IMG/VR virus record: IMGVR_UViG_3300001530_000192
Strand: one strand, 5' to 3'
Source of the DNA: a virus
Length of the DNA: 31,399 nucleotides
Below the pieces are notes generated by a model. That model saw nothing but the letters and a program-made list of their open reading frames with translations. It had not been told where the DNA came from and did no database searches. The position numbers and the translations under genes are program-made. Within the stretch, counting starts at the first letter, position 1. Each line of letters starts with the position of its first letter. Of this stretch, positions 12,614-31,399 are shown one piece after another.

Positions 12614-12641
12614 AAGTAAAAACAGACATTTCTGCCTGTTT
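12614..12641 (-). terminator. Terminator-like hairpin plus T-run between terL and portal.
   Basis: The minus-strand RNA forms aaacaggc-agaaat-gtctgttt (an 8-bp stem with one G-U pair that only forms on the minus strand), followed by ttttt. Confidence 0.5.
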
Positions 12642-12665
12642 CATTTTATTTCATTATCTCACATT

Positions 12666-12701
12666 TACATTATAACATAATATGAGTGTGAAAAATGTGA
12701 A
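12666..12701 (-). promoter_or_regulatory. Conserved late-promoter-like motif, copy 1: TTCACA-N4-TCACACT-N7-TGTTATAATGTA (minus sense).
   Basis: Plus strand reads tacattataaca-taatatg-agtgtga-aaaa-tgtgaa. The same blocks and spacing occur at 15638-15673 and 29133-29168. It contains an extended -10 (TGnTATAAT). Confidence 0.5.
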
Positions 12702-12703
12702 AG

Positions 12704-14449
12704 TTAAGCAACTTGAACAAAAAAGTTTCCATTTTCAAGAAATACTTCTTGTTGCAATAAATAAATACTATTTATAAGTGCTACAACCATATCTATTTTT
12801 CCATTGGATTTCTTTTTATTAACATATCTATTCATATTTGTATCAAAAACACATCTTGCATTTTGAAAATTAATTTCAAGTAATTTATTATCTTCATATC
12901 TGAACTTACCATCCATTATTTTTTCATACAATAATTTTGTAGGTGGATGTAATGTATCAGAGTGTTGTCTAATTTGAACTGTCTGATATTTTTCATCCCA
13001 TTTTTGAGCAGATGATAATGCATTATATCTATCATATCCTATAGCCATAACAACAACATCATATTTTTCTTCTATTGCAAACACAAAATCTTCAATAACT
13101 TTATAATCAACTGTTTTATCACCACAAGCGATACATTTCATAGCATTAATAAAATCATAATAATTAACTTTTTCAAATTGATTTTTTTCTTCTATTCTTC
13201 CCTCTGGAATAAATGATATTGCTTCTGCTAATATTACATCATCATCATTACTTGTCATTGCTACTGCACAGTTGTCATTAGTCATAGCAAGGTCAACACC
13301 AATATATACTTCTTTACCTGACCAATCAATTTTATCAACTTTGCATTTTTGTACTTCTGTTACATCTACAAAACTTTCAGTTCCTGCACCTTGATAAATA
13401 ATATTACAATGTTTTGTAAGAAAGTTTTCTCTCTTACTTTCCATTTCAATTGCTTTAGTTCTTTTATCTAATAAATCTCTAAATACTGCCTCAACTTCAA
13501 TTGCTAATGGATTTGATTGTAAAATAATATTATCATCATTAGTCCAATTTTTAGTTTCATTAGGTTCAAATAACAATGCAAATACTTTTTCATCATCGAT
13601 GATATCATCTAATACTTTTTTTGCATAAGTTGTTTCAGTTTCCATCGGATTATCTACTGTAGGATATTTAGTGGAAATAATAAAACCTAATTTATTAAAT
13701 ACCAATAATTGTCCTGACCTCATCGCTTCAATGGCATAATCTGTTGGTAATGCACCAACCTCATCTGCAACAAATACATTTGGTTCTTTACCATCCATTC
13801 TATCTTTTGAATAATTTAAAGGTGTATAAATTGTTTCAGTTAAACTATGTCTGATACAATCTCTTAATATTTTAAATTCACCCTCTTCAAAGACACTTGT
13901 ATTTGCTTTGATTAATGGTTCTAGTGCTTTTTTAATTTCTTTAGCCAATGCTCCATCAGGTGCAACTGAATAGAATTGAGAATATTTTGGTTCAAGGTAA
14001 AATAACAATAATATTACAAGTGCAACTATAAATGTTTTACCATTCTTTCTGCATATTTCTAATATTATTGTTTCATATCTTCTTTTATTTTTATTATCTC
14101 TATACACAGTACAAAGACTAGCAACTATAATAAGCCATTGATATCCTGCCAATGCTTCATATATTTTTCGACCTCTTTTTATACCTTTTGCCATTACTAA
14201 TATTTTTAATATTTTATCTATTCTTTTCAATCTGCTAATATCGATTATATATTTACTAGATTTATTATCTGCAATATCTAAAAATATCTTACATTGTTTT
14301 TTAACATACTTTGGCGATATAAATTGCTTTTCACCATTTAATTCATAATACAATGGTGGTGGTTGTAATGTTCCATCAACTATCTTTTTAGCATAAATAT
14401 AACTTGGATGAAGTTCTATATTATTGTTCTTCATTGTCATCATCTTCAT
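12704..14449 (-). CDS. terL: Terminase large subunit.
   Basis: 581 aa. It has a Walker A-like motif (CRKNGKT). It lies downstream of the small subunit and overlaps it. Several in-frame ATGs at 14434-14449 leave the exact start uncertain. Confidence 0.9.
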   Translation of the reverse strand: MKMMTMKNNNIELHPSYIYAKKIVDGTLQPPPLYYELNGEKQFISPKYVKKQCKIFLDIADNKSSKYIIDISRLKRIDKILKILVMAKGIKRGRKIYEALAGYQWLIIVASLCTVYRDNKNKRRYETIILEICRKNGKTFIVALVILLLFYLEPKYSQFYSVAPDGALAKEIKKALEPLIKANTSVFEEGEFKILRDCIRHSLTETIYTPLNYSKDRMDGKEPNVFVADEVGALPTDYAIEAMRSGQLLVFNKLGFIISTKYPTVDNPMETETTYAKKVLDDIIDDEKVFALLFEPNETKNWTNDDNIILQSNPLAIEVEAVFRDLLDKRTKAIEMESKRENFLTKHCNIIYQGAGTESFVDVTEVQKCKVDKIDWSGKEVYIGVDLAMTNDNCAVAMTSNDDDVILAEAISFIPEGRIEEKNQFEKVNYYDFINAMKCIACGDKTVDYKVIEDFVFAIEEKYDVVVMAIGYDRYNALSSAQKWDEKYQTVQIRQHSDTLHPPTKLLYEKIMDGKFRYEDNKLLEINFQNARCVFDTNMNRYVNKKKSNGKIDMVVALINSIYLLQQEVFLENGNFFVQVA

Positions 14450-14921
14450 TCAATATATCCATCAAAGTTTTCTTCTTTGTTGGAGTCGCATTGATTGATA
14501 TTTTCGCTCTTGCTTGTGGTGATAATGACAATTCATTACAACATCTAAAAAAGTCTTTAGAGTACATATCCCTAACAGACTTTAGATTTATAATAGTTTT
14601 AACATCTAACTTATCTTTTACTTTACCATCTTCATCAGTTATCTTACTAGACTCATTTATCTCTTTTTCAAGACTCTCTAATCGTTCAATTGTGATTGCA
14701 GTTTGATTTAATAAATAAGTATCTAAATTACTTAAAATATCTTGATTAAGATTATTTAAGATATCTTTAAAAATTGCTTTTTGTCTTTTGTTAAGATACT
14801 TAAATGGTTTTATTTTATCATTAGCACCTCTTAATTTTTTTTCGCTTTCTTCTCTTTCTTTTCTTTCCTTTTTACTCATTTTCATTGAGTTTGTATCAAT
14901 CGCTTTTGCAGGTCTTGCCAT
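14421..14921 (-). CDS. terS: Terminase small subunit (P27-like).
   Basis: The MARPAKAIDTN... N-terminus is typical of P27-family small terminases. The start is reset to ATG 14921, which is preceded by AGGAGGTG. The GTG used by the ORF track lies inside that SD sequence. Confidence 0.75.
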   Translation of the reverse strand: MARPAKAIDTNSMKMSKKERKEREESEKKLRGANDKIKPFKYLNKRQKAIFKDILNNLNQDILSNLDTYLLNQTAITIERLESLEKEINESSKITDEDGKVKDKLDVKTIINLKSVRDMYSKDFFRCCNELSLSPQARAKISINATPTKKKTLMDILNEDDDNEEQ

Positions 14922-15029
14922 GATTATCACCTCCTATTTTTTTCAACAATTGATGGAAAATTTTCATTTTAGGCATTTTTTACACTTTTAGGGGATGCGT
15001 AGGTTTTGAAAGTTTTGTAAAATCCTTAA

Positions 15030-15467
15030 TTAAAAGGCAGGGGGGATGGTTGCTCCACCCTCTACTGCCTCTACTTCTGCTTTTATTTTCTTTAAATCAC
15101 AATCTTCTTTAATTAATTCTTGCAATATTTTTCTTGGTATGACATTATTATCACTTAATTTATGATGATAACAACACAAAGTTATAAGGTTTTCATCATC
15201 TAATCTTCGGGAATAATCTTCTTCTAATGGAATTATGTGATGAACTTCTAACTTGTTGAAGTTATAAATACTAGAGGTGTTATAGATATCTGCGATGCAA
15301 CATCTACATAAATGTTTATCTCTATTTCTTATATCTTCACTCTTTTTATGCCATTTATAAGTCTTTCTGAACTTATCTGCATCTGTTAAACCTCTAACCT
15401 GTCTATTCTTATAGCATGTCTTATTAAAATCGTGTATCTTTCCACACCTACTACAACTCTTTAGCAT
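15030..15467 (-). CDS. hnh: HNH endonuclease (terminase-associated).
   Basis: It has the HNH motif EVHHIIPLEED...NLITLCCYHH plus CxxC pairs. It lies immediately upstream of terS, as in HK97-like cos phages. Confidence 0.85.
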   Translation of the reverse strand: MLKSCSRCGKIHDFNKTCYKNRQVRGLTDADKFRKTYKWHKKSEDIRNRDKHLCRCCIADIYNTSSIYNFNKLEVHHIIPLEEDYSRRLDDENLITLCCYHHKLSDNNVIPRKILQELIKEDCDLKKIKAEVEAVEGGATIPPAF

Positions 15468-15597
15468 AAAAACATCTCCCTACCTAAAATTAAGCATAGC
15501 ACCTTTCTATGCTTATATGAGAGTACGATAGGAGATAATTGATACACAGAAAGGAAAAAAAGGTGCTATATTTTTTCTCATACTCTCATATAAACAC

Positions 15598-15626
15598 AGA
15601 AAAAAAGACAACATATTAGTTGCCTT
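15598..15626 (-). terminator. Terminator-like hairpin plus T-run downstream of late motif copy 2.
   Basis: The minus-strand RNA forms aaggcaac-taatat-gttgtctt (an 8-bp stem with one minus-strand-only G-U pair) running into ttttttt. Confidence 0.5.
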
Positions 15627-15637
15627 ACTATTCACCA

Positions 15638-15673
15638 TACATTATACCACTAATTTAGTGTGAGTTTTGTGAA
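15638..15673 (-). promoter_or_regulatory. Conserved late-promoter-like motif, copy 2 (TTCACA-N4-TCACACT-N7-TGGTATAATGTA).
   Basis: Plus strand reads tacattatacca-ctaattt-agtgtga-gttt-tgtgaa. The 27-mer 15654-15680 is identical to 29149-29175. Confidence 0.5.
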
Positions 15674-15676
15674 TTA

Positions 15677-16171
15677 TTAACATATATCAAATAAAGATAA
15701 TTGCATTTGTGGTTGTATATTTTTTGCTTCAATAAAGTCTTTTAAAAAGTCATCTATATTTGAATAATCATTTTGATTAAATCCATCACTAAAACCTCCA
15801 CCATGCCAATTTAATTCATTTCTATATTTTTTATTAGCATTATAATCAAAATATAAAACATAATCGTATTTGTTAAATAAATAATGTTTTTCATCAGTTT
15901 TTTCTATTGCTATTGTCAAATCATATTTTTCTGATTTGATTAGTAATTGATGTTCATGGATAGAGTCTAATAATTCTTGTATTTCAACATTATACTTAAC
16001 TTGAATATAATCCATTATGGATTTAAAAAAATTAACTTCCATATTATCTTCCTTTCTTGATTTTATACAATCAGGACATAAACACTTATTATCTATACCT
16101 TTTAAATAATCAAATTTCCCACATTCATCACATTTATCTTTAAAATTATTCTTGTGGCATTTCATATACAT
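15677..16171 (-). CDS. Hypothetical protein with an N-terminal Cys-rich (zinc-finger-like) segment.
   Basis: 164 aa. CDECGK...CLCPDC motifs are present. Confidence 0.55.
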   Translation of the reverse strand: MYMKCHKNNFKDKCDECGKFDYLKGIDNKCLCPDCIKSRKEDNMEVNFFKSIMDYIQVKYNVEIQELLDSIHEHQLLIKSEKYDLTIAIEKTDEKHYLFNKYDYVLYFDYNANKKYRNELNWHGGGFSDGFNQNDYSNIDDFLKDFIEAKNIQPQMQLSLFDIC

Positions 16172-17067: not shown

Positions 17068-17697
17068 TTAACTTCCTAAATAAAAGTTCTTTCTTTTAGT
17101 ATTTTTATCATTATTATCCCAACATATATATAATAATGTGACTCTTTCGTTAGAGTGATTTAACATTTCTTTTAATCCTATGATATCGCCTGTTTCTTCA
17201 TAGTATGACCTAGCAAAATATTTTCTTAATGAGTGGCATCCAACAGGATATCCTACTTTTACCTCATCTGATAATTGTTTTATAACCTGCCATGCTCTTT
17301 GCCTTGTAATTGGCATATTAATACCTTTTCTACTCTTAAATAAATATTCACCCTCAATTAATTCATTTCTATTAATATAATCTGCTATATCCTTTGCTAA
17401 TGATGGATGTAATTCAAATGATTGTTCTTTATTTGTTTTAAATTCTCTTGTATATACAGAACCATTCTTAAAATTATCAACTTTTAATTGTAAAATATCC
17501 TCAATTCTAAAGGCAAGGTTCATGCCAATAACTAATATCATATAGTTTCTATCCCATAGATATTGTTGTTCTTCATTGCCATCATCTTCTGCTTGGTTTC
17601 TTCTTTTTTTACAATTGATTATCATATTATCAATATCTGCTTTTTTAAATGGTTGCACTGTCTTTCTACCGAACTTAATTCTAAAAGTCCTACTCAT
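17068..17697 (-). CDS. Short tyrosine recombinase consisting of the catalytic domain only (second recombinase in this genome).
   Basis: 209 aa. It carries an R (AFRIEDIL), an HxxR box (CHSLRK), LNHSN and a terminal tyrosine (VTLLYI). There is no N-terminal core-binding domain. RBS AGGAGGTG precedes the start. Confidence 0.7.
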   Translation of the reverse strand: MSRTFRIKFGRKTVQPFKKADIDNMIINCKKRRNQAEDDGNEEQQYLWDRNYMILVIGMNLAFRIEDILQLKVDNFKNGSVYTREFKTNKEQSFELHPSLAKDIADYINRNELIEGEYLFKSRKGINMPITRQRAWQVIKQLSDEVKVGYPVGCHSLRKYFARSYYEETGDIIGLKEMLNHSNERVTLLYICWDNNDKNTKRKNFYLGS

Positions 17698-18803: not shown

Positions 18804-19107
18804 ATTCACCTCTTAATAATTTATCTAAGTATTTTTCATCAGTATTTTTATAATCTACTTGTCTGCCGGTTTCAAAAAAATATTGAAGCATCGCTTTTGC
18901 ACAAGCACAAGGTAAATCACTACCATCACAATAATCACATGCATACCAATAACCACAAGCATTAAGTCCTGTTAAATCACTTTCTTTTCTAATTTTGTCA
19001 CTATCACAATAATTTTGAAATGCCTCTTTCCATTTCTTTTTATCATAATCAGTAACTACTGTTTTATCTATATATGGTGTATCATCAAACAATTTATTTT
19101 TATCCAA
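18796..19107 (-). CDS. Cys-rich hypothetical protein with a TTG start.
   Basis: 103 aa. TTG 19107 is preceded by AGGAGGT. The cysteine cluster CGYWYACDYCDGSDLPCACAK is present. Confidence 0.55.
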   Translation of the reverse strand: MDKNKLFDDTPYIDKTVVTDYDKKKWKEAFQNYCDSDKIRKESDLTGLNACGYWYACDYCDGSDLPCACAKAMLQYFFETGRQVDYKNTDEKYLDKLLRGEYE

Positions 19108-21433: not shown

Positions 21434-21673
21434 CTACTTTTCACCTCTTAATAAAGATTTCAAAGTCTTATTTTTGGCTCTTAAATTCTTATTTTCCTTT
21501 CTTAATCGTGATATCTCACTTGGTTCTTGTAATTTTTCCATAAATGTTTTAAATAATTCATCTTTGATTGTATCTTCTAATGCACCTTTTTCTACCTCTA
21601 ATGAATTTATCTTATGGATTAATTGAATTTTACTGAAACTAAAGATGTCTTTGATTTTCATTTTCTTCGCCAT
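21434..21673 (-). CDS. Hypothetical coiled-coil protein.
   Basis: ORF track, 79 aa. The start is uncertain (21673 or 21661). Confidence 0.45.
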   Translation of the reverse strand: MAKKMKIKDIFSFSKIQLIHKINSLEVEKGALEDTIKDELFKTFMEKLQEPSEISRLRKENKNLRAKNKTLKSLLRGEK

Positions 21674-22070
21674 CTTCTCTTAACCTACCTTTCAAATATT
21701 TTTTTAAATGATAATATGGGGTAGTTCTTTCAAAATTAAGTTCTTTACCTATTTGATGCCAATTCTTACCATCTATAAATCTTGCTCGGATAATTACTCT
21801 GACATTACTATCCTCGATTGTTTCAAGAAAGTTTTCTATCTTTAATTGTTCATCTAATAACTTATCTTGTTTCTTTTTAAGTATCATTTCTAATTTTGAT
21901 TTTTTAATAACTAAACTTTCAACAGGATTACCAACATGTCCTGAACCTTGTGGCATTCCTGATATTTTTGGACTTCCAATCGTTGTATCATCTAATTCTT
22001 TTAAATTTGCCTTTATTTGCTCTATTTCAAGTTTTATTACATGATACTTTGATAATTCATCTATTGTCAT
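21639..22070 (-). CDS. Sigma-70 region-4-like / DUF1492-type phage transcriptional regulator (candidate late-gene regulator).
   Basis: 143 aa. The IKLEIEQIK..L...........ISGMPQGSG pattern and the C-terminal HTH-like segment (RVIIRARFIDGKNWHQIGKELNFERTTPYYHLKK) support the call. The family assignment is from memory. Confidence 0.5.
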   Translation of the reverse strand: MTIDELSKYHVIKLEIEQIKANLKELDDTTIGSPKISGMPQGSGHVGNPVESLVIKKSKLEMILKKKQDKLLDEQLKIENFLETIEDSNVRVIIRARFIDGKNWHQIGKELNFERTTPYYHLKKYLKGRLREDGEENENQRHL

Positions 22071-23269: not shown

Positions 23270-23389
23270 CTACTTTCCAATCATTTTTTTAATTTCTTTA
23301 TACATTGAAATAAGTAAAATACTTAATATAAACACCCCTAAACTAATTAAAATTACTGCTCCAAAAAACTTTAAAATACTTATAATCAT
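23270..23389 (-). CDS. Small membrane peptide (39 aa), not in the ORF track.
   Basis: It has an ATGA start/stop overlap with the upstream gene. Translation: MIISILKFFGAVILISLGVFILSILLISMYKEIKKMIGK, ending at TAG 23270-23272. Confidence 0.45.
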   Translation of the reverse strand: MIISILKFFGAVILISLGVFILSILLISMYKEIKKMIGK

Positions 23390-23628
23390 ATATCTTCCAC
23401 CTCCTCTAAATCCTTTACAAGGTGATAGATTGCATAACTTGTAGTATGACCATATCTATTTTTGCCTTGAACCATTTCAGTTTCTATTCCAAAACCTCTT
23501 TCTCGTAAAATAAATATTATTCCTGATAATCTAGTTGCTCCAAATCTTTTGATTGCCTCATAAGAAGTGATTTGTTTATGTTTTCTTAAATATGCGATTA
23601 TTTCGGATGTTTGACTCTTTTTACTCAT
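23386..23628 (-). CDS. Winged-helix DNA-binding protein.
   Basis: 80 aa. The pattern ..IIAYLRKHKQITSYEAIKRFGATRLSGIIFILRERGF.. is typical of small phage wHTH proteins. Confidence 0.5.
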   Translation of the reverse strand: MSKKSQTSEIIAYLRKHKQITSYEAIKRFGATRLSGIIFILRERGFGIETEMVQGKNRYGHTTSYAIYHLVKDLEEVEDI

Positions 23629-23630
23629 AA

Positions 23631-23828
23631 CTACACCCCCAAATAATCTGCAACTTCTTTACTACCTGTACAAACTTGGATAATTCCACCTTTACATGTG
23701 TAATTTCCTGCAGGTGTAGTTTTAGTTGTTTCTAAAGTAAATAATTGATATATAGCGATTGATACAATTGCACTTACAATTGCTACTAATGTATATTTAA
23801 CCCATGGTCTTAATCTTCTTTTAGTCAT
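23631..23828 (-). CDS. Small membrane protein.
   Basis: 65 aa with one TM helix (YTLVAIVSAIVSIAIYQLF). Confidence 0.5.
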   Translation of the reverse strand: MTKRRLRPWVKYTLVAIVSAIVSIAIYQLFTLETTKTTPAGNYTCKGGIIQVCTGSKEVADYLGV

Positions 23829-24012
23829 TTTTTTCTGCCTCCTTTATTCCTAAATATTGATAAAACATATCAGGGTAAATAATATAGTTCCATCTTTTAT
23901 TTACCTTTACTGCCGAACCAAATGGCAATCTTCCTGTTTGTAATCCAACTCGAATAAATTGAGCAGATTTATGCATCAATGCAGATGCTTCTTTAATTGT
24001 AATTTTCTTCAT
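23821..24012 (-). CDS. Excisionase-family / MerR-like HTH DNA-binding protein.
   Basis: 63 aa. The ITIKEASALMHKSAQFIRVGLQTGRLPFG pattern is present. Confidence 0.45.
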   Translation of the reverse strand: MKKITIKEASALMHKSAQFIRVGLQTGRLPFGSAVKVNKRWNYIIYPDMFYQYLGIKEAEKND

Positions 24013-24042
24013 AAAAAATCCATTCCTTTCTTATAATTTGTT

Positions 24043-24070
24043 TTTTGTTTTTTAGTTTGTCAGACTAATT
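24043..24070. repeat. Left arm of the perfect 28-bp inverted repeat bracketing the immunity region.
   Basis: ttttgttttttagtttgtcagactaatt is the exact reverse complement of 25431-25458. Confidence 0.9.
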
Positions 24071-24305
24071 ATTGAGTTTTCTCAACTTTTTCTGTAAAAA
24101 AATATAATGGGATATCATGTGCTTCAATATTTAATAACTTACTTGATTTAATGATTTCAGTTTGAGTAAATGAAACACCTTTAGATAATTTCTTGTATAA
24201 ACTATAAGTAGATATTCCTAACTGCTCTGCAAATGATGATTGTGTATTAAATACTTCACGAATTTTACCTTTTAATTTACTATAATCAAATTCTAGTTTC
24301 ATCAT
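24069..24305 (-). CDS. Cro-like XRE-family HTH regulator.
   Basis: 78 aa. The HTH segment is SSFAEQLGISTYSLYKKLSKG. It is divergent from the CI-like repressor across the operator region. Confidence 0.75.
   Translation of the reverse strand: MMKLEFDYSKLKGKIREVFNTQSSFAEQLGISTYSLYKKLSKGVSFTQTEIIKSSKLLNIEAHDIPLYFFTEKVEKTQ
24071..24086. promoter_or_regulatory. Operator palindrome copy (15/16 match), lying in the 3' end of the cro-like gene.
   Basis: attgagttttctcaac compared with the consensus GTTGAG-TTTT-CTCAAC. Confidence 0.55.
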
Positions 24306-24403: not shown

Positions 24404-24428
24404 TTTTTTATTTTTTTTGACATCTTTT

Positions 24429-24444
24429 GTTGATTTTTCTTAAT
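24429..24444. promoter_or_regulatory. Operator palindrome, degenerate copy (13/16), overlapping the repressor-side -35 element.
   Basis: gttgatttttcttaat. Confidence 0.4.
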
Positions 24445-24458
24445 TTTATGTTTATAAT
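24430..24458 (+). promoter_or_regulatory. Candidate repressor (maintenance) promoter.
   Basis: TTGATT (24430-24435), a 17-nt spacer, then TATAAT (24453-24458), upstream of the RBS AGAGGTGG and GTG 24484. Confidence 0.45.
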
Positions 24459-24483
24459 AATTAATGTAAAGAGGTGGTATTTT

Positions 24484-25173
24484 GTGATTGTAGATACATT
24501 TGCAAGTAGGCTAAATATTGCAATGAAAGAATGTAAAATGAAGCAAGTTGACTTGGCAAATAAGACAGGAATAGATAAATCTCTTATAAGTAACTATTTG
24601 TCAGGAAACTATCAAGCCAAACAAAACAACATTTATAAATTAGCGAAAGCATTAAATGTCAGTGAGAGTTGGTTGATGGGATACGATGTTGACATGGATA
24701 GAGAATGGTTTGATGATAAAGAACCATCTGAAATATCAATTGACAATGCTATATATCTAGAAGCAACTACAAAGACAGTTAAAATACCTCTACTTGGCAA
24801 AGTTCCTGCAGGTGTACCTATTGAGGCAATAGAAGATATAATTGGTTATGAAGATATTCCTTATAAATGGGTACAAAATGGCACTAGATACTTTGCTCTT
24901 AAAGTTGATGGAAATAGTATGTATCCTGATTATCATACAGGCGATACAATAATAATTAGACAACAACCTGATTGCGAGTCTGGTGATGATTGTGTTGTTA
25001 TGGTAAATGGTGATGATGCAACATTTAAAAGAGTTATCAAACAAGAAAAGAGTATAATATTGAAGCCATTAAACAATGAATATGAACCATATTTATTTAA
25101 TGAATACGATATATTAACAAAACCTGTTAAAATCGTAGGTGTAGCAGTAGAAGTAAGAAGAAAGTTGAGGTAA
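24484..25173 (+). CDS. CI/LexA-like repressor (XRE HTH plus S24 peptidase domain).
   Basis: The HTH is KMKQVDLANKTGIDKSLISNYLSG. The C-terminal S24-like region contains ..ALKVDGNSMYPDY..GD.....FKRV. The start is reset to GTG 24484 after AGAGGTGG. The ORF-track N-terminus (MLIFLNF...) lies in the promoter region. Confidence 0.85.
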   Translation: MIVDTFASRLNIAMKECKMKQVDLANKTGIDKSLISNYLSGNYQAKQNNIYKLAKALNVSESWLMGYDVDMDREWFDDKEPSEISIDNAIYLEATTKTVKIPLLGKVPAGVPIEAIEDIIGYEDIPYKWVQNGTRYFALKVDGNSMYPDYHTGDTIIIRQQPDCESGDDCVVMVNGDDATFKRVIKQEKSIILKPLNNEYEPYLFNEYDILTKPVKIVGVAVEVRRKLR

Positions 25174-25542: not shown

Positions 25543-26586
25543 ATGAAATTACCTAATTCTTTCGGCTCTGTACAGAAGTTGAGTGGTAATAGAAGAAAAC
25601 CTTATCGAGTAGTCAAAACTGTTGGATGGGATGAAAATGGAAAACAAATCAGAAAGACTATTGGATATTATGAAACTAGAACCCTCGCATTACAGGAATT
25701 AGCCTTATTTAATGAAAAACCTTATGATATAGATGCAAGAAATATTACAGTAGATGAATTACATCAAAAATGGCAAAATGAGAAATATCCTAAAATAGCA
25801 TATAAGACTCAACAAGTATATAATATGTGTTGGAATTATTGTCAAGATGTTAAGAATATGGCATTTGTAGATATCAGATTAAATCATTTACAAGCAATCG
25901 TTGATGGTATGGGTAATAAATGGTCTGCTAAAAAGGCATTTAAGATATTATGGCATCAGATGTACGATTATGCGATTAAAAATGATATGGATGTAAGAAA
26001 GTATTCAGAATACATCGATATAGGCAAAAAAACCACTAAATTAGTGCGAATACCATTTGAAGAGGATGAAATAGACAAGTTATGGGATAATGTTGCTAGA
26101 ATGGACTTTATTGACACGATATTAATACTTATTTATACAGGAATGAGAGTCGGCGAACTTTTAGATATTAAAGTAGAAAATGTTCATATAAACGAAAAAT
26201 ACATGGTTGGTGGCTCTAAAACCGAAGCAGGTAAAGATAGAGTCATACCATTCCATGAACGAATAGTACCATTAGTAAAGAAATGGTATGATAATGCAAT
26301 TAAAAATGGTAGTGAATACCTAATATATAATCACGAATATAAACAAATGAAATATTGGAACTATTATCATGAGAAATGGGAAAAGATTATAGAACAATTA
26401 GAGTTTAGTCCTGAACATAAGCCTCACGATACTAGACATACATTCTCTACTCGTATGGATAGAACCAATGCTAATAAATTATGTATAAAAAGAATACTAG
26501 GACATGCTAGTAAGGATATTACTGATAAAGTTTATACACATAAAGACATTGATGACCTATTAGAAGCAGTTAATATGTTAAAATAA
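25543..26586 (+). CDS. int: Tyrosine integrase.
   Basis: 347 aa. It has ..TGMRVGELL.., HDTRHTFSTR and LGHAS...T..VYTH (the R-H-R-Y catalytic set), plus an N-terminal arm/core-binding region. Confidence 0.9.
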   Translation: MKLPNSFGSVQKLSGNRRKPYRVVKTVGWDENGKQIRKTIGYYETRTLALQELALFNEKPYDIDARNITVDELHQKWQNEKYPKIAYKTQQVYNMCWNYCQDVKNMAFVDIRLNHLQAIVDGMGNKWSAKKAFKILWHQMYDYAIKNDMDVRKYSEYIDIGKKTTKLVRIPFEEDEIDKLWDNVARMDFIDTILILIYTGMRVGELLDIKVENVHINEKYMVGGSKTEAGKDRVIPFHERIVPLVKKWYDNAIKNGSEYLIYNHEYKQMKYWNYYHEKWEKIIEQLEFSPEHKPHDTRHTFSTRMDRTNANKLCIKRILGHASKDITDKVYTHKDIDDLLEAVNMLK

Positions 26587-27567: not shown

Positions 27568-28428
27568 TTAAAATAATTTAATATTATCCCATCTAGTAAG
27601 ACCTGCATTTAAGTTCTTATTTACTTGATTTTGAACTTCATCATATCTTGAACCTAATGCTTTTCTACGAGCATCACCATTACCAAAATCACCTCTAATA
27701 GTTTTTTTAACTAATGTTAATAGGTCATCAGATGGTTGTGATGGTGTGCTAGGTGTTGATGGTTGACTTGGTGCAGGTTTTCCAACACCTTTATCAACTA
27801 ATGCTTGAACTGCATTATATCTAGAACCTAATTTTGCCTTTCTAGTATCGCCATTACCAAATTCACCTGTCCATACTCTTCTAGCAAGTTCTTCATCGCT
27901 TACACCTTTAAATGGGTCATCTTGACTAGGTGTTCCTGCATGAACATCACCAATAGCAGGGTTAACAATACAACCTCTGAATTTGTAACCACTACTTAAT
28001 CCCCATCTTCCATTTGAATTTGTTCTTATACTATTCCAAAATGCACTAGAACCATATCCACTTTCAGATGTATAGATTTGATTAGCACTATCAATTCTTT
28101 CTACTACTGCAACATGTCCTGCACCATCAGAGCCATTTAAGGTATTTCCTTTTTGCCATACCATAATACCACCTAATGTTGGATATGATACAACTTGTAA
28201 TCCTAAACTTTTTGCTCTTTCGATAAAGTTTTCTGCATTACAATTTAGAGCAGGATATTTCATGCTTCCAATTATTTCATTAAATCTACCACAAGCATAC
28301 CCTACACAGTTAGCAAGTACATTTGCATTTGCATCTGTTGGATATCCTTGAATACAAGTTGAATAACCACCTCTAGATTTAGTGATATAGAACTTATTGC
28401 CACTAGGCTTACTTGTTCTCATTTGCAT
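27568..28428 (-). CDS. Endolysin: N-terminal CHAP domain plus two CW_7 (Cpl-7-like) cell-wall-binding repeats.
   Basis: The CHAP Cys lies in NCVGYACGRF and the His in GHVAVVE. The two repeats are GEFGNGDTRKAKLGSRYNAVQALV and GDFGNGDARRKALGSRYDEVQNQV, separated by a P/S/T linker. The start is reset to ATG 28428 (MQMRTSKP) after GAGGAGGTGG. Confidence 0.85.
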   Translation of the reverse strand: MQMRTSKPSGNKFYITKSRGGYSTCIQGYPTDANANVLANCVGYACGRFNEIIGSMKYPALNCNAENFIERAKSLGLQVVSYPTLGGIMVWQKGNTLNGSDGAGHVAVVERIDSANQIYTSESGYGSSAFWNSIRTNSNGRWGLSSGYKFRGCIVNPAIGDVHAGTPSQDDPFKGVSDEELARRVWTGEFGNGDTRKAKLGSRYNAVQALVDKGVGKPAPSQPSTPSTPSQPSDDLLTLVKKTIRGDFGNGDARRKALGSRYDEVQNQVNKNLNAGLTRWDNIKLF

Positions 28429-28567
28429 CTTCTTCCACCTCCTCTTTGTTTTCAACTGTACAATCATCACCCTCTACTAATGCATCAATTCCATCAGTAT
28501 TGAATACTGTTTGTACTTCTTGTTCTTCTGTTACTTCTTCTGTAACATTTGTTTCCTTTTCTTCCAT
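28409..28567 (-). CDS. Small, highly acidic protein (52 aa) between the holin and the endolysin.
   Basis: AAAGGAGGG precedes ATG 28567. The protein begins MEEKETNVTEEVTEEQEVQ... The longer ORF-track N-terminus has no SD sequence. Confidence 0.5.
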   Translation of the reverse strand: MEEKETNVTEEVTEEQEVQTVFNTDGIDALVEGDDCTVENKEEVEEDANENK

Positions 28568-28610
28568 CTTTATCCCTCCTTTTGAAGAAAAATATATATA
28601 AAAAAGAGAA

Positions 28611-28814
28611 CTATTTGTTCTCTTTCTTACTATAATTTGCACTAGATATACCTAGTATTACACCTAAAGCAGTATCAATAGCAGTAATTGTAGCACCTAT
28701 TTCTTCGCCATAAGGTATATTCCATATCTTAAATACAGTTATTACCAATGTAGCGATTGCAGGTAATACATACATTGCTATTTTCTTTAAAGTATCATAA
28801 GTTTTATTACTCAT
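28611..28814 (-). CDS. Holin (phage_holin_1 / phiLC3-like).
   Basis: 67 aa. The pattern MSNKTYDTLKKIAMYVLPAIATLV....IW.IPYGEEI..TI.AI...LG..LGIS is typical of this family. Two TM helices are predicted. Confidence 0.8.
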   Translation of the reverse strand: MSNKTYDTLKKIAMYVLPAIATLVITVFKIWNIPYGEEIGATITAIDTALGVILGISSANYSKKENK

Positions 28815-28833
28815 ACTACCACCTCTTTTCTAT

Positions 28834-29073
28834 TTATTTAGGACTTATTTGTATTAATGCAAATATTAAACCTACAATTCCTGCAATAATTGCACCTACA
28901 ATAGTCCTTGATAACCATTTGATTTTGTCTTTTATTTCATCAATATCCCTTTCATTCTGAATAGATAAATTATGGGCATCATCAGTTTTTTCTTTCATGG
29001 TATTGTAATCATCTAATTTTGTTTCAATTTTAGTAAGTCTATCTAAAACTTCCCTCTCAAAACCTTTTTCCAT
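28834..29073 (-). CDS. xhlA: XhlA-family lysis-associated membrane protein.
   Basis: 79 aa with an N-terminal coiled coil (LDRLTKIETKLDD...) and a C-terminal TM helix, located upstream of the holin. Confidence 0.7.
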   Translation of the reverse strand: MEKGFEREVLDRLTKIETKLDDYNTMKEKTDDAHNLSIQNERDIDEIKDKIKWLSRTIVGAIIAGIVGLIFALIQISPK

Positions 29074-29091: not shown

Positions 29092-29122
29092 ATAAAAAAA
29101 GACAACTTCGTTTTGTTGCCTT
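29092..29122 (-). terminator. Terminator-like hairpin plus T-run downstream of late motif copy 3 and the RT gene.
   Basis: The minus-strand RNA forms aaggcaac-aaaacgaa-gttgtctt running into ttttttt, homologous to 15598-15626. Confidence 0.5.
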
Positions 29123-29132
29123 ATTATCTATA

Positions 29133-29168
29133 TACATTATAACACGATTTTAGTGTGAGTTTTGTGAA
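29133..29168 (-). promoter_or_regulatory. Conserved late-promoter-like motif, copy 3 (TTCACA-N4-TCACACT-N7-TGTTATAATGTA), overlapping the RT stop codon.
   Basis: Plus strand reads tacattataaca-cgatttt-agtgtga-gttt-tgtgaa. Confidence 0.5.
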
Positions 29169-30286
29169 TTATTAAGAAATAAATCATTGAATAATTTATC
29201 CATATTTAATAATGTTCTATGACAGTCATATTTAGCAATATTTCCTCGCCATGATTTGTATTGCTCTTCTATTTCATTAAATGTCATCTCATTATTATCT
29301 AACATTTTCTTAAAACTCTTTAATTTTCTTCTTTCTCTAACTATATTGCTCTTTACAGGTATTCTAACAAGATGTCCTGTATCAGTTAAACGATATTTTA
29401 TCTTTAAAAATGTAAAACCTTTATCTATTCTAAATATTTGTGTTTTCTTTTTATTGATAAATATACCTAATTTATCACATATAACAACAATATCTTCTAA
29501 TAATTGTTTTAACTCTTCTTTATTGTTACTTAAAATATAGGTATCATCCATATATCTTCCATAATATTTCATTTTTTTAACTATTTTACAATAATTATCC
29601 ATCCTAGTAGGATAATAAATGCCTGAAATTTGCGATATTTGGCTACCTATACCTAATGACTTATGAATGTATCTTTCGCCTGTCCTAGCACCTGTTTTTT
29701 TAGCATAAGTCAAAGAGTCAAATAAGTCTTTTTCTGTTGCATCATAATTTGATACATCTATTGAAAAACTATCTATAAGATGAGCAATTAAATTTAATAT
29801 ATCCTCATCATCAATGATTTCTTTATACATATCCATTAATGGCTTATGTAAAATATTATCATAAAACTTGCTAAAATCGATAATGAGTGCATATCCACGA
29901 TTTCCATACTTTCTATAATACTTGTGTAAGTGAGTTTCAACTCTCTTACGAGCAAAATCAATACCTTTATTCTTTATACTTGCACCATTATCATAAGTTA
30001 GATATGGTGTAACTATGGGAGTCAATTGGTCGCATAATGCTCTTTGTACAACTCTATCATAGAAACTAATGGAGCGAACATATCTCTCTTTACCTCTTTC
30101 ACACAAAAAGAAGTTATCAAATGCACCTTGCTTATAGGTTTTATTCCTTAACTCTATTTGTGTTTTTCTTATATTTTTAAGTAAATTGGCTTCATATTGT
30201 TGAACACTATTTTTCCATATACTATTTTTTCTTGTTTTATAGAAACTATCAACTAAAACATTGGCATTACTAATCTTATCAATCAT
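29150..30286 (-). CDS. rt: DGR-type reverse transcriptase.
   Basis: 378 aa. The RT motifs are IIDFSKFYDNI, SLGIGSQISQ (the DGR-diagnostic [LIV]GxxxSQ motif 4) and RYMDDTYIL (YMDD). The N-terminal ..FYDRVVQRALCDQL.. is typical of DGR RTs. The TR lies 122 nt upstream. Confidence 0.93.
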   Translation of the reverse strand: MIDKISNANVLVDSFYKTRKNSIWKNSVQQYEANLLKNIRKTQIELRNKTYKQGAFDNFFLCERGKERYVRSISFYDRVVQRALCDQLTPIVTPYLTYDNGASIKNKGIDFARKRVETHLHKYYRKYGNRGYALIIDFSKFYDNILHKPLMDMYKEIIDDEDILNLIAHLIDSFSIDVSNYDATEKDLFDSLTYAKKTGARTGERYIHKSLGIGSQISQISGIYYPTRMDNYCKIVKKMKYYGRYMDDTYILSNNKEELKQLLEDIVVICDKLGIFINKKKTQIFRIDKGFTFLKIKYRLTDTGHLVRIPVKSNIVRERRKLKSFKKMLDNNEMTFNEIEEQYKSWRGNIAKYDCHRTLLNMDKLFNDLFLNNSQNSH

Positions 30287-30407
30287 ATTTTGTTCCTAAC
30301 TCTAATTGACTTATCAAAGAGTATCAAAATATCTATTTGCCTCTCGGACAGGATAAAGTTTCCTTTTAATTCTTGCAACGGTACTTAACCTAATCATTGT
30401 GCAAGTT
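30287..30407 (-). ncRNA. DGR spacer region between the TR and the RT start (the noncoding part of the TR-containing RNA).
   Basis: It has no ORF. It contains the stem cttgca/tgcaag (minus sense: CTTGCAcaatgattaggttaagtaccgtTGCAAG) immediately 3' of the TR. Its role is inferred by analogy with the BPP-1 DGR RNA. Confidence 0.4.
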
Positions 30408-30492
30408 AAAATCAGGGGCGAACACCACCAGAGTTGGAAGCATTGTTGTAGTTACTATTACCATTGTTGTTGACATTGCAGAAGCCCGAAGC
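30408..30492 (-). repeat. DGR template repeat (TR).
   Basis: 85 bp align without gaps to 31205-31289 (offset 797). All differences lie at plus-strand T, which is coding-strand A, in this copy. In the VR frame it reads ASGFCNVNNNGNSNYNNASNSGGVRP, with 9 AAY codons. It lies in the noncoding gap between the avd-like gene and the RT. Confidence 0.9.
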
Positions 30493-30513
30493 CCTAATAA
30501 TTTTGAACAAACC

Positions 30514-31074
30514 TTACCCTTTGTTTTCTTCTTCTTTTTTATCTATTTCTTTTATTATTCTATTATCAGATTTTCGCCAACCTTTTAACAACACAATCTC
30601 TTTTTCAATCATATCAACATATCTCATGTATTTCTCTACATTCGGATGACATACATATATAACATATTGCATTTCTTGAAGAAGATTTTCACAATCAATA
30701 ATTGCTTGTGTTTGATAATTTCTTCGCAAATAGTATTCTTCTTTATTAGTTATATGAATTGTATTTGCAGAGCAAATATTCTTCATCATATCTCTCAATA
30801 AATCCATGAAATAATCTCGTTCTTTGTCTATTAGCCATGATGGAAAATTATCAATGAAACTATTTTTGATATCGTATGCAGAGAGAATATCTTCTATTTG
30901 TTCAATATCTTCTTCATCAATATCATATACTTCTTGAGCAAATTCCAAATTTCTTCTTCTTGACTTTATTCCGAAATCTTTCAAAAGAAATTCAGTCATC
31001 ATCAATCTTAATTTTATAGCATTATGATAAAACTCCATCTTTGAAATGTTTCTTTTCCTTTTCAACACACTCAA
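30514..31074 (-). CDS. avd: Avd-like accessory variability determinant candidate (helical, basic termini, atypically long).
   Basis: It lies between the VR and the TR, exactly where avd sits in canonical DGRs. It is 186 aa with predicted helical heptad-like segments and K/R-rich ends. The start is uncertain (TTG 31074 or ATG 31038). I did not see the canonical Avd family motif. Confidence 0.5.
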   Translation of the reverse strand: MSVLKRKRNISKMEFYHNAIKLRLMMTEFLLKDFGIKSRRRNLEFAQEVYDIDEEDIEQIEDILSAYDIKNSFIDNFPSWLIDKERDYFMDLLRDMMKNICSANTIHITNKEEYYLRRNYQTQAIIDCENLLQEMQYVIYVCHPNVEKYMRYVDMIEKEIVLLKGWRKSDNRIIKEIDKKEEENKG

Positions 31075-31095
31075 TATCTATCAACTCCCTATTAT

Positions 31096-31124
31096 ATTCT
31101 ATCTGTTTATTATTTTTATGTCAA
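31096..31124 (-). promoter_or_regulatory. Near-consensus promoter for the avd-TR-RT transcript.
   Basis: Minus strand reads TTGACA (31124-31119), a 17-nt spacer, then TAGAAT (31101-31096), about 20 nt upstream of the avd-like ORF. Confidence 0.5.
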
Positions 31125-31158
31125 TTCATTACAGGAAATTTGATATTTATTTAATCTA

Positions 31159-31196
31159 TAATCTGCCACCCCATAAAGGGGTGTGATTGCAGATTA
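31159..31196 (-). promoter_or_regulatory. Hairpin/cruciform element immediately 3' of the VR (DGR homing-associated structure). It overlaps the target stop codon.
   Basis: The outer stem taatctgc (31159-31166) pairs with gcagatta (31189-31196). The inner GC stem cacccc (31167-31172) pairs with ggggtg (31178-31183). The loop is 5 nt and there is a 5-nt bulge. Confidence 0.6.
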
Positions 31197-31399
31197 ATAG
31201 ATTAAAAAGCAGGGGCGAACACCACCAGAGTCGGAAGCATTGGGGTAGGCACTATTACCATAGCCGCCGACACCGCAGAAGCCCGAAGCAGACCATACAT
31301 CTCTTAACCAATACCATTGTCTAGCATTACTATCATTAAATGCTATTTGCTTACTCTTATCCAATCTAAATAAAGATAATTGTGACTTATCAATAGTAT
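31194..31399 (-). CDS. DGR variable target protein, 3' part (C-terminal variable region). This is the same gene as 1..766 joined through the circular seam.
   Basis: The frame is continuous with 766..1. The C-terminus reads ...WYWLRDVWSASGFCGVGGYGNSAYPNASDSGGVRPCFLIY, ending at TAA 31194-31196. Confidence 0.85.
   Translation of the reverse strand, partial: TIDKSQLSLFRLDKSKQIAFNDSNARQWYWLRDVWSASGFCGVGGYGNSAYPNASDSGGVRPCFLIY
31205..31289 (-). repeat. DGR variable repeat (VR) at the 3' end of the target gene. Positions 31250-31289 are duplicated at 1-40.
   Basis: It aligns to TR 30408-30492. There are 12 substitutions in the 80-bp core plus 1 at the 3' boundary, and every one lies opposite a TR adenine. 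Confidence 0.9.
31250..31399. repeat. Terminal direct repeat, right copy (identical to 1..150).
   Basis: See the left copy (1..150). Confidence 0.95.

Follow-up and report, generated by a model that had tools for sequence, protein, structure and literature searches.

Late promoters with predicted terminators directly behind them: a triplicated motif and a DUF1492-family candidate regulator in a temperate siphophage-like genome

Why should a phage place a transcription terminator directly behind its own late promoters? The question is raised by IMG/VR virus record IMGVR_UViG_3300001530_000192, a stretch of 31,399 nucleotides (nt), called here the window, which gene calls and family searches identify as a temperate siphophage-like genome. 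A 36-nt motif, TTCACA-N4-TCACACT-N7-TGKTATAATGTA, occurs three times on its minus strand without a single mismatch, at 12666-12701 (site 1), 15638-15673 (site 2) and 29133-29168 (site 3); across the three copies the 3' block is written TG(G/T)TATAATGTA. A search of the window allowing up to three mismatches found no fourth copy. The chance expectation is 0, and 100 dinucleotide-preserving shuffles of the window contained no copy, which excludes chance as the source of the three-fold occurrence. The parts of the three sites are as follows.

12687..12701, minus strand: site 1 direct repeats TTCACA-TTT-TTCACA, beginning 3 nt past the terL stop codon
12669..12677, minus strand: site 1 extended -10, TGTTATAAT
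12618..12642 (hairpin 12642-12619), minus strand: site 1 predicted leader terminator GAAACAGGCA-GAAA-TGTCTGTTTT(T), -10.7 kcal/mol
15659..15673, minus strand: site 2 direct repeats TTCACA-AAA-CTCACA, 9-bp period, at about -39 to -25, proposed site of a DUF1492 regulator
15641..15649, minus strand: site 2 extended -10, TGGTATAAT, followed by an invariant GTA (15640-15638)
15600..15626 (hairpin 15626-15605), minus strand: site 2 predicted leader terminator AAGGCAAC-TAATAT-GTTGTCTT, 7 T in all, -8.4 kcal/mol
29154..29168, minus strand: site 3 direct repeats TTCACA-AAA-CTCACA, overlapping the end of a reverse-transcriptase gene (stop 29150)
29136..29144, minus strand: site 3 extended -10, TGTTATAAT
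29094..29122 (hairpin 29122-29099), minus strand: site 3 predicted leader terminator AAGGCAAC-AAAACGAA-GTTGTCTT plus T-run, -7.7 kcal/mol

The motif is better read as two 6-mers with a 9-bp period, (T/A)TCACA-N3-(T/C)TCACA, followed by a promoter core. TATAAT occupies motif positions 28-33 and together with its TG extension makes a perfect extended -10. The -35 TTGACA that the primary sigma factor would use 16-18 bp from a -10 TATAAT is missing: a -35 read from TTCACA would leave a spacer of 21 nt, and one read from CTCACA a spacer of 12 nt. Other promoter-like sites in the window do have TTGACA. The perfect extended -10, the missing -35, the direct repeats in its place, the position in front of the late blocks and the conservation described below support the assignment of the three sites as putative late promoters of the activator-dependent type. 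The preliminary description of this DNA had reported three minus-strand copies with identical block spacing, an extended -10 lacking a properly spaced -35, and TCACA repeats typical of activator-type late promoters, upstream of portal, hnh-terS-terL and xhlA-holin-endolysin. The copies, spacers and anatomy bear this out, family searches confirmed the gene identities, and the sites are conserved before the packaging, morphogenesis and lysis blocks. One further exact TCACA-N4-TCACA sequence (18926-18939, plus strand) is at chance level and was set aside.

Each copy is followed, not preceded, by a minus-strand hairpin and a run of 5 to 7 T, site 1 having 5. The single G-T wobble in each hairpin becomes an A-C mismatch on the plus strand. 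Both points had been made in the preliminary description. The distances it gave need correction: it placed the hairpins at 15-27 nt, and they start 10-23 nt past the last motif base (14-26 nt past the -10 hexamer). Its prediction of a short terminated leader RNA stands except for the length: with transcription starting 7 nt past the -10, this RNA would measure about 34-45 nt in the window (31-49 nt in relatives) in place of about 35-55 nt. The minus strand of the window is enriched in terminator-like sites. Rfam gave nothing at gathering score for the whole window, and a permissive search of 15400-15700 gave only chance-level matches.

The position of the hairpins relative to the genes suggests what they would do. 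Site 2 begins 3 nt after the last early open reading frame (ORF), so its terminator, which also ends the early operon, is the only one between the early and the late genes. At the other two sites the T-run lies 26 nt from the portal start codon (ATG 12591, site 1) and 20 nt from that of xhlA (ATG 29073, site 3). These intervals hold a ribosome-binding site only and no promoter, so that the genes from portal onward and the lysis genes should be transcribable only through the hairpins. Read-through at sites 1 and 3 is thus predicted to be obligatory for late expression.

No close named phage exists among the INPHARED phages by megablast of the 5 kb around the site. The exact motif is present in 33 IMG/VR stretches and 18 stretches from gut metagenome-assembled genomes (MAGs), whose TerL proteins are 71-100% identical to that of the window. 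Its position is always one of three, as in the window: ahead of HNH, between terL and portal, or ahead of the lysis cassette. Conservation before late genes in relatives had been set beforehand as a test, and the motif passed it. The MAGs are labelled Bacilli, Mycoplasmatota/Tenericutes or Clostridia. Some MAGs that carry the prophage family (L042, L050, L051, L058) are labelled Muribaculaceae (Bacteroidota) and may be phage contigs that were binned wrongly. In 47 distinct relatives the TCACA cores do not vary.

The hairpins are conserved along with the promoters. A strict terminator lies within 45 nt after the motif in 85 of 87 copies, as against none of 44 control TGnTATAAT sites elsewhere on that strand in these loci; that the terminator comes after the promoter is no accident. 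All 52 distinct motif copies in the relatives' loci have a hairpin of -4.9 to -11.4 kcal/mol abutting a run of 5-8 T, that is, the stem-loop and U-run of an intrinsic terminator on the transcribed strand, at which termination is predicted. The stems are not copies of one sequence. Thirty-six distinct hairpins were found with several unrelated stems, among them GGCAAC/GTTGTC, GGCAAT/ATTGTC, GGCGACTG/CAGTTGTC, AACAGGCA/TGCTTGTT, CAAACA/TGTTTG, ACAGATA/TATCTGT and ACGAGG/CCTTGT. In 18 distinct arm pairs, the inner six stem positions are paired in 106 of 108 cells, 19 of these cells being G-U. When the 3' arms were permuted (a permutation test in Python), 62.7 +/- 7.5 cells were paired and none of 10000 permutations reached 106. 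The arms come from folds of the individual sequences, which are related to one another; the hairpin structure is nonetheless clearly preserved in the RNA of the coding strand. As a whole, the feature is real and under functional constraint, and its conservation is strong.

A regulator that could read the direct repeats is encoded in the early operon.

21639..22070, minus strand: candidate regulator, a 143-aa DUF1492 (LtrB/RinA-like) protein, assigned by Pfam, PHROG and a structure model

It matches Pfam DUF1492 (PF07374), which is the LtrB branch of the Ltr (late transcriptional regulator) superfamily, with 25 bits against a cut-off of 21.5 (E 2.2e-5). PHROG matches are phrog_36 (3e-20), phrog_248 and the Alt-like phrog_2198, annotated as transcriptional regulator, activator or Alt-like. 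Matches to the RinA profile TIGR01636 and to sigma-70 region 4 profiles are remote and below cut-offs. The AlphaFold2 model, with a mean predicted local distance difference test (pLDDT) score of 82, has helices at 3-32 and 49-84 forming a long helical hairpin, followed by a C-terminal three-helix helix-turn-helix (HTH); a conserved GMP loop is poorly predicted. The model thus suggests the small protein with a C-terminal HTH resembling sigma region 4 that is characteristic of Ltr proteins. It also matches predicted viral structures in BFVD annotated DUF1492 or sigma70_r4, with E-values down to 4.5e-6. Searching solved structures with the regulator sequence gave nothing useful, and tblastn against the INPHARED phages gave four weak matches only. 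The last helix, ERTTPYYHLKKYL, is the presumed recognition helix; it is almost invariant in 27 homologues that are 51-84% identical to the window protein and were drawn from database matches at 53-98% identity, in agreement with the invariant TCACA cores in the phages of these homologues. In the window the gene does not lie beside a late site. About 20 further early ORFs follow it, and the first late site is 6 kb away.

More distant homologues (22-34% identity to the window protein) link the regulator to the promoter. In four of the stretches that encode them (L064, L072, L073, L074) a promoter lies 2-12 nt past the homologue gene and has the geometry of the window sites: a 6-mer, N3, the same 6-mer, N9 and TGnTAnnnT. 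The 6-mer is TGTTCG in the first three and TGTCCG in L074, and in L064 the gene after this promoter is terS. The pattern TGTTCG-N3-TGTTCG-N9-TGnTAnnnT occurs in at least 120 IMG/VR stretches (L080-L199; e.g. L090 6257, L082 3105). Among the matches listed, to which all further counts for these promoters refer, 91 of 102 distinct usable copies have a regulator homologue encoded on the same strand within 600 nt upstream, with a median of 4 nt between its stop codon and the first 6-mer. Many of the TGTTCG-type promoters have a third GTTCG repeat 9 bp further upstream. The 6-mers and the recognition helices correspond as follows.

Repeat 6-mer TTCACA: recognition helix T(T/S)PYYxLKKY
Repeat 6-mer TGTTCG: recognition helix T(A/E)DGxRMxxxRY
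Repeat 6-mer TGTCCG: recognition helix TMDSVRKRAKRF

Since 6-mers and helices vary together, there is strong comparative evidence that the DUF1492-like protein would read the repeats. The DUF1492 protein at 21639-22070 is the best candidate for the late regulator, and very probably is that regulator: the Pfam match above cut-off, the phrog_36 match and the link between homologues and promoters all point to the sigma-region-4-like protein that the preliminary description had singled out.

The wider clade repeats the layout of the terminators as well. In about 59% of the 102 copies (60 or 58 by two counts) the 200 nt that follow the -10 contain a hairpin with T-run, and in 44 copies the first 100 nt do, as against 5.4% and 2.5%, respectively, of random same-strand positions. 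A terminator-like site in the 200 nt upstream of the promoter was found for one of the 102. Across the regulator family, therefore, the terminator between early and late regions appears to sit inside the late transcript and not before the late promoter.

Part of this is familiar biology. The Ltr superfamily of Gram-positive siphophages includes RinA, ArpU, LtrA (sigma70_r4), LtrB (DUF1492), LtrC and Alt of TP901-1 (PMC3753634, PMC3152322). Late transcription requires Ltr proteins, whose C-terminal part binds direct repeats; they are activators acting on repeats upstream of terS, and packaging and lysis genes are transcribed from one late promoter (PMC3753634). The window system resembles them in its small early protein with a specificity-setting C-terminal HTH, in its direct repeats before the packaging genes, in the control of packaging, morphogenesis and lysis, and in the terminator that separates early and late regions. 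It differs in having three promoters instead of one, and a regulator gene 6 kb upstream of the first site instead of beside terS. The window repeats take up the spacer as well as the -35 region, their distance from an extended -10 being constant, and the terminator lies inside the late transcript. In the RinA system a terminator separates terS from the binding site, and more than 155 bp lie between that site and the mapped 5' end, a situation described in that study as "more complex" than direct activation (PMC3152322).

A terminator-like hairpin is found between the regulator repeat region and terS in three phages with RinA- or Alt-type regulators. In 80alpha (L041 1722-1907) the repeats TGGCAGT-N4-TGGCAGT are followed by a 10-bp hairpin with T6 and then terS. 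Faecalibacterium phage Taranis (L063 7540-7720) has repeats, then ATGACA-17-TG-TATGAT, then a 13-bp hairpin with a T-run. In TP901-1 (L079 990-1560) the hairpin stands just before terS at the end of a leader of about 490 nt. The same stretch of TP901-1, from the Alt repeats to terS, holds two tRNA genes predicted by ARAGORN (Lys-ttt, Ala-cgc). The 9-bp-period geometry was considered as a rule for all Ltr families and rejected, as 80alpha and Taranis lack the exact geometry; the rule would apply to the DUF1492-like clade only.

What, then, carries polymerase through the hairpins? The best explanation, to which a probability of about 0.5 is given, is antitermination coupled to the promoter. It builds on the observed anatomy and its conservation, the covariation of the hairpins, the link between regulator family and promoter geometry, and the systematic downstream placement of the terminator. 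The host RNA polymerase with its primary sigma factor would read the three late promoters through the perfect extended -10, and the two TCACA 6-mers would be bound by the 143-aa DUF1492 protein made from the early operon. Behind each promoter, at about +7 to +45, an intrinsic terminator would act in two ways. At the early/late junction it would halt polymerases coming from upstream, and at all three sites it would also halt the promoter-started polymerase in its unmodified state. The DNA-bound regulator would recruit polymerase and in addition leave it resistant to the hairpin; the three-fold repetition would re-establish the resistance at each late block.

Two considerations favour this proposal. 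First, only 6-24 poorly conserved nt of RNA lie between the predicted start and the hairpin, which makes a mechanism loaded from RNA (of the nut, put or RAT type) unlikely. As there is no room for an RNA element, a factor loaded from promoter DNA would be the simplest solution. Second, a terminator upstream of the promoter would insulate the late genes at no cost, so the downstream placement seems sensible only if promoter-started polymerases pass it better than others. A promoter abutting the regulator gene cannot be the reason for this placement, because sites 1 and 3 are far from the regulator gene and have the same layout. There are also hints that the resistance may last past the first hairpin. 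The lysis cassette of one relative (L060) is preceded by a terminator-like hairpin without the motif. At the holin/endolysin junction of the window (28598-28630, minus strand) stands a 14-bp hairpin (-14.7 kcal/mol) with a T-rich tail and no motif upstream; if it terminates, endolysin expression would depend on read-through.

The layout recalls Q, PR' and tR' of phage lambda, and the corresponding Q82 and Q21 systems: a presumed binding element within the promoter, a close terminator that would give a short RNA, late genes beyond it and a regulator made early. The TCACA repeats are positioned like the promoter DNA element of Q and may be bound in a similar way. The differences are also clear. 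The window regulator has no sequence or fold similarity to any Q family. Lambda PR' has a -35 and is constitutive, and its terminator is at +194, compared with about +35-45 in the window. Unlike in lambda, no evident sigma-dependent pause element is seen in the window, and the unit is repeated three times. The comparison with PR'-tR' and Q-type antitermination made in the preliminary description is borne out in part: the layout of terminator after promoter supports it, no Q-family protein turned up in the early ORFs scanned, the regulator model matches no Q fold, and a pause element is not clearly present. By analogy, the window system may work like lambda Q/PR'/tR' while not being a member of a Q family.

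Other known systems share single features. As with P2 Ogr and P4 Delta, Mu C and P1 Lpa, several late operons have the same activator site and no good -35; unlike the window sites, those promoters lack leader terminators, and their activators are unrelated and use dyad-symmetric sites. As in lambda N-nut, HK022 put and the ribonucleic antiterminator (RAT) of BglG/LicT, intrinsic terminators would be read through in phage or operon leaders. Those systems, unlike the window, need structured or specific RNA before the terminator.

Several observations weigh against promoter-coupled antitermination. No Q or N family protein was found; scanning 21 early ORFs brought up no antiterminator family from Pfam or PHROGs. 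The small ORF at 21434-21673 was compared with PHROGs only, and four further small ORFs at 23386-24305 lay outside the Pfam scan. The regulator model has no significant match in the PDB (none with E below 0.3), Q-like folds included, and its matches to sigma region 4 there are weak. In the 47 distinct copies the initially transcribed region is weakly conserved, apart from position +6, which is A in 44 of them. Around +1 to +10 a few sequences such as TAGAAT, GATAAT or TACAAT stand in some copies, the counterpart of T-7 varies, and no convincing conserved -10-like sigma-dependent pause element was seen in the first transcribed bases of these copies. The hosts are uncultured MAG lineages. About 40% of the distant leaders lack a canonical T-run terminator; those of L072 and L073 have strong hairpins only. 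The motif-linked hairpins of the window (-7.7 to -10.7 kcal/mol) do not reach the strength of the terminators at the operon ends of this phage (-12 to -16 kcal/mol), and part of the read-through may be intrinsic, a matter of simple leakiness. Finally, 5' rapid amplification of cDNA ends (RACE) in 80alpha, performed after treatment with Terminator exonuclease, which degrades 5'-monophosphate RNA, placed the RinA-dependent late 5' end downstream of the terminator (PMC3152322). This result fits plain activation in that phage.

The last points would be expected if the DUF1492 protein only recruits polymerase and the activated promoter simply outruns partial terminators, with no modification of polymerase. 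The hairpins would then cut basal read-through into toxic late genes and set the expression ratios of the blocks. Ltr proteins have been described as activators only (PMC3753634, PMC3152322), the window hairpins are modest and site 1 has just 5 T, all of which agree with such a scheme, as do the distant relatives without a canonical leader terminator. It is harder to reconcile with where the terminators are. A terminator upstream would block incoming polymerases at no cost, yet it lies downstream in 85 of 87 close copies and 58 of the 102 distant ones, against one of 102 upstream, and sites 1 and 3, whose promoters stand apart from the regulator gene, keep the same placement. Early and late transcripts would moreover be attenuated alike, hence without discrimination, and compensatory changes preserve the stems and T-runs. 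Plain activation with leaky terminators is judged less probable than promoter-coupled antitermination, and it is the main alternative to it.

A second alternative keeps antitermination and assigns it to another factor, either an unassigned early phage protein or a host factor, which would act through the hairpin RNA or on polymerase while the DUF1492 protein activates only. About 20 early ORFs have no assignable function, and the stem sequence AAGGCAA(C/T) is conserved beyond structural need. The RNA available before the hairpin is again short and poorly conserved, and the terminator position is coupled tightly to the promoter and not to any gene. A 164-aa Cys-rich ORF directly upstream of site 2, described below, matches no family, and L060-type relatives lack it while keeping the arrangement. 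Such a factor is improbable.

The hairpins could also serve mainly in RNA stability or processing, as 5' stem-loops of the late mRNAs and 3' stem-loops of the upstream mRNA. Stem-loops near the 5' end stabilise mRNAs in Firmicutes, and the hairpins lie 6-24 nt from the predicted 5' end. A stabiliser would not need the abutting run of 5-8 T seen in 52 of 52 distinct copies, and the A-rich 5' shoulders and the strand specificity of the G-U pairs are typical of intrinsic terminators, which makes this role very improbable. Least probable of all is that the units are genes for short regulatory RNAs of about 31-49 nt, the downstream genes being transcribed from elsewhere: a promoter and a terminator 31-49 nt apart have that anatomy, set against RNAs of the three sites that share hairpin shape only, no Rfam match in the whole window, and no alternative promoter for portal and xhlA.

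The gene order around the three sites is given below, with late and lysis genes identified by family searches. Head, tail and diversity-generating retroelement (DGR) genes come after portal on the same (minus) strand.

24427-25173, plus strand: S24/HTH repressor of the lysogeny module
25543-26586, plus strand: integrase of the lysogeny module
24305 to 15677, minus strand: early operon with DnaD-like loader, G39P-like protein, the DUF1492 protein, MazG-like protein and many unassigned ORFs
12704..15467, minus strand: late block 1 (HNH, terS, terL), downstream of site 2
15467-15030, minus strand: HNH
14930-14421, minus strand: terS
14449-12704, minus strand: terL
12591-11323, minus strand: portal, first gene of late block 2, downstream of site 1
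27568..29073, minus strand: late block 3 (XhlA, Dp-1-type holin, a 77-aa ORF, CHAP/CW_7 endolysin), downstream of site 3
29073-28834, minus strand: XhlA
28814-28611, minus strand: Dp-1-type holin
28470-27568, minus strand: CHAP/CW_7 endolysin

The 164-aa ORF (15677-16171, minus strand) has a Cys-rich segment resembling a zinc ribbon at its N-terminus. Pfam, PHROG and NCBIfam gave no match for it, and a sequence search of solved structures gave no useful result; a weak resemblance to RNA 2'-phosphotransferase (E 0.014) is the only one. Several relatives conserve it at 61-75%, and L060-type phages lack it. It occupies the position of Q in lambda and was considered as a general antiterminator; the candidate was dropped because it has no family match and is absent from the L060-type relatives, which keep the arrangement.

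Between the site-2 terminator and the HNH start (15468-15604, minus strand) is a leader segment of about 105-135 nt with a fold z-score of -6. A long inverted repeat, CTGTGTTTATATGAGAGTA ... TACTCTCATATAAGCATAG, runs through it, and another pair of complementary sequences, ATAGCACCTTT / AAAGGTGCTAT, is interleaved with this repeat. The segment is present in about half of the relatives and cleanly absent from the rest, and one compensatory change from G-C to A-U is seen in L013. It has no Rfam match; a regulatory RNA acting on HNH/terS and a small insertion element are both conceivable.

A 209-aa protein encoded at 17068-17697 on the minus strand consists of a tyrosine-recombinase catalytic domain only (Pfam Phage_integrase 7e-19, phrog_216). 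It is about the size of FimB/FimE-type invertases and is distinct from the true integrase at 25543-26586. Its position just upstream of the late genes is kept in relatives, L060-L062 included. Despite this conserved synteny, action of the protein at the motif is disfavoured: the repeats are direct and not inverted, and there is no co-variation.

The gene that ends within site 3, the ORF at 30286-29150, is no tail gene and encodes a reverse transcriptase (Pfam RVT_1 2.9e-22). It belongs to a DGR at 29150-31289 on the minus strand. An 85-nt direct repeat is present as a template-like copy (30408-30492) and a variable-like copy (31205-31289) that are 85% identical. On inspection of the two copies, they differ at T on the plus strand, which is A on the coding strand, the signature of adenine mutagenesis. 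Hairpins of GGTGGTGTTCGCC stand at both ends of the repeat.

Late-gene control sets the timing of DNA packaging and lysis in temperate phages of Gram-positive bacteria, and it also governs transduction and the mobilisation of pathogenicity islands. The regulators of the Ltr superfamily have been treated as simple activators, and this part of the system is established biology (PMC3753634, PMC3152322). The triplicated promoter, the fixed promoter geometry of the regulator clade, the obligatory leader terminator and the antitermination hypothesis appear to be new. In the literature searched, no paper describes the motif-terminator arrangement, as the preliminary description had supposed, and none ties RinA, ArpU, DUF1492 or late transcriptional regulators to antitermination. 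A broader proposal, more tentative than the one for the window, is that the DUF1492/RinA-like late regulators of Firmicutes phages could form a widespread and new family of promoter-loaded antiterminators, analogues of Q built on a sigma-region-4-like fold. If true, this would account for a long-standing puzzle, the position of the RinA binding site, which precedes a terminator and is distant from the mapped late 5' end.

This phage family offers a clean anatomy for the question: a promoter of fixed geometry, a terminator 10-25 nt later and no alternative promoter. With such a layout it can be asked directly whether the regulator renders RNA polymerase terminator-resistant. If it does, it would represent a new antiterminator family and a compact, portable switch made of promoter, terminator and regulator. 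If it does not, the findings would still provide a DNA recognition rule that covers a large class of late promoters in gut phages: two 6-mers repeated at a 9-bp period, with 9 bp between them and TGnTAnnnT.

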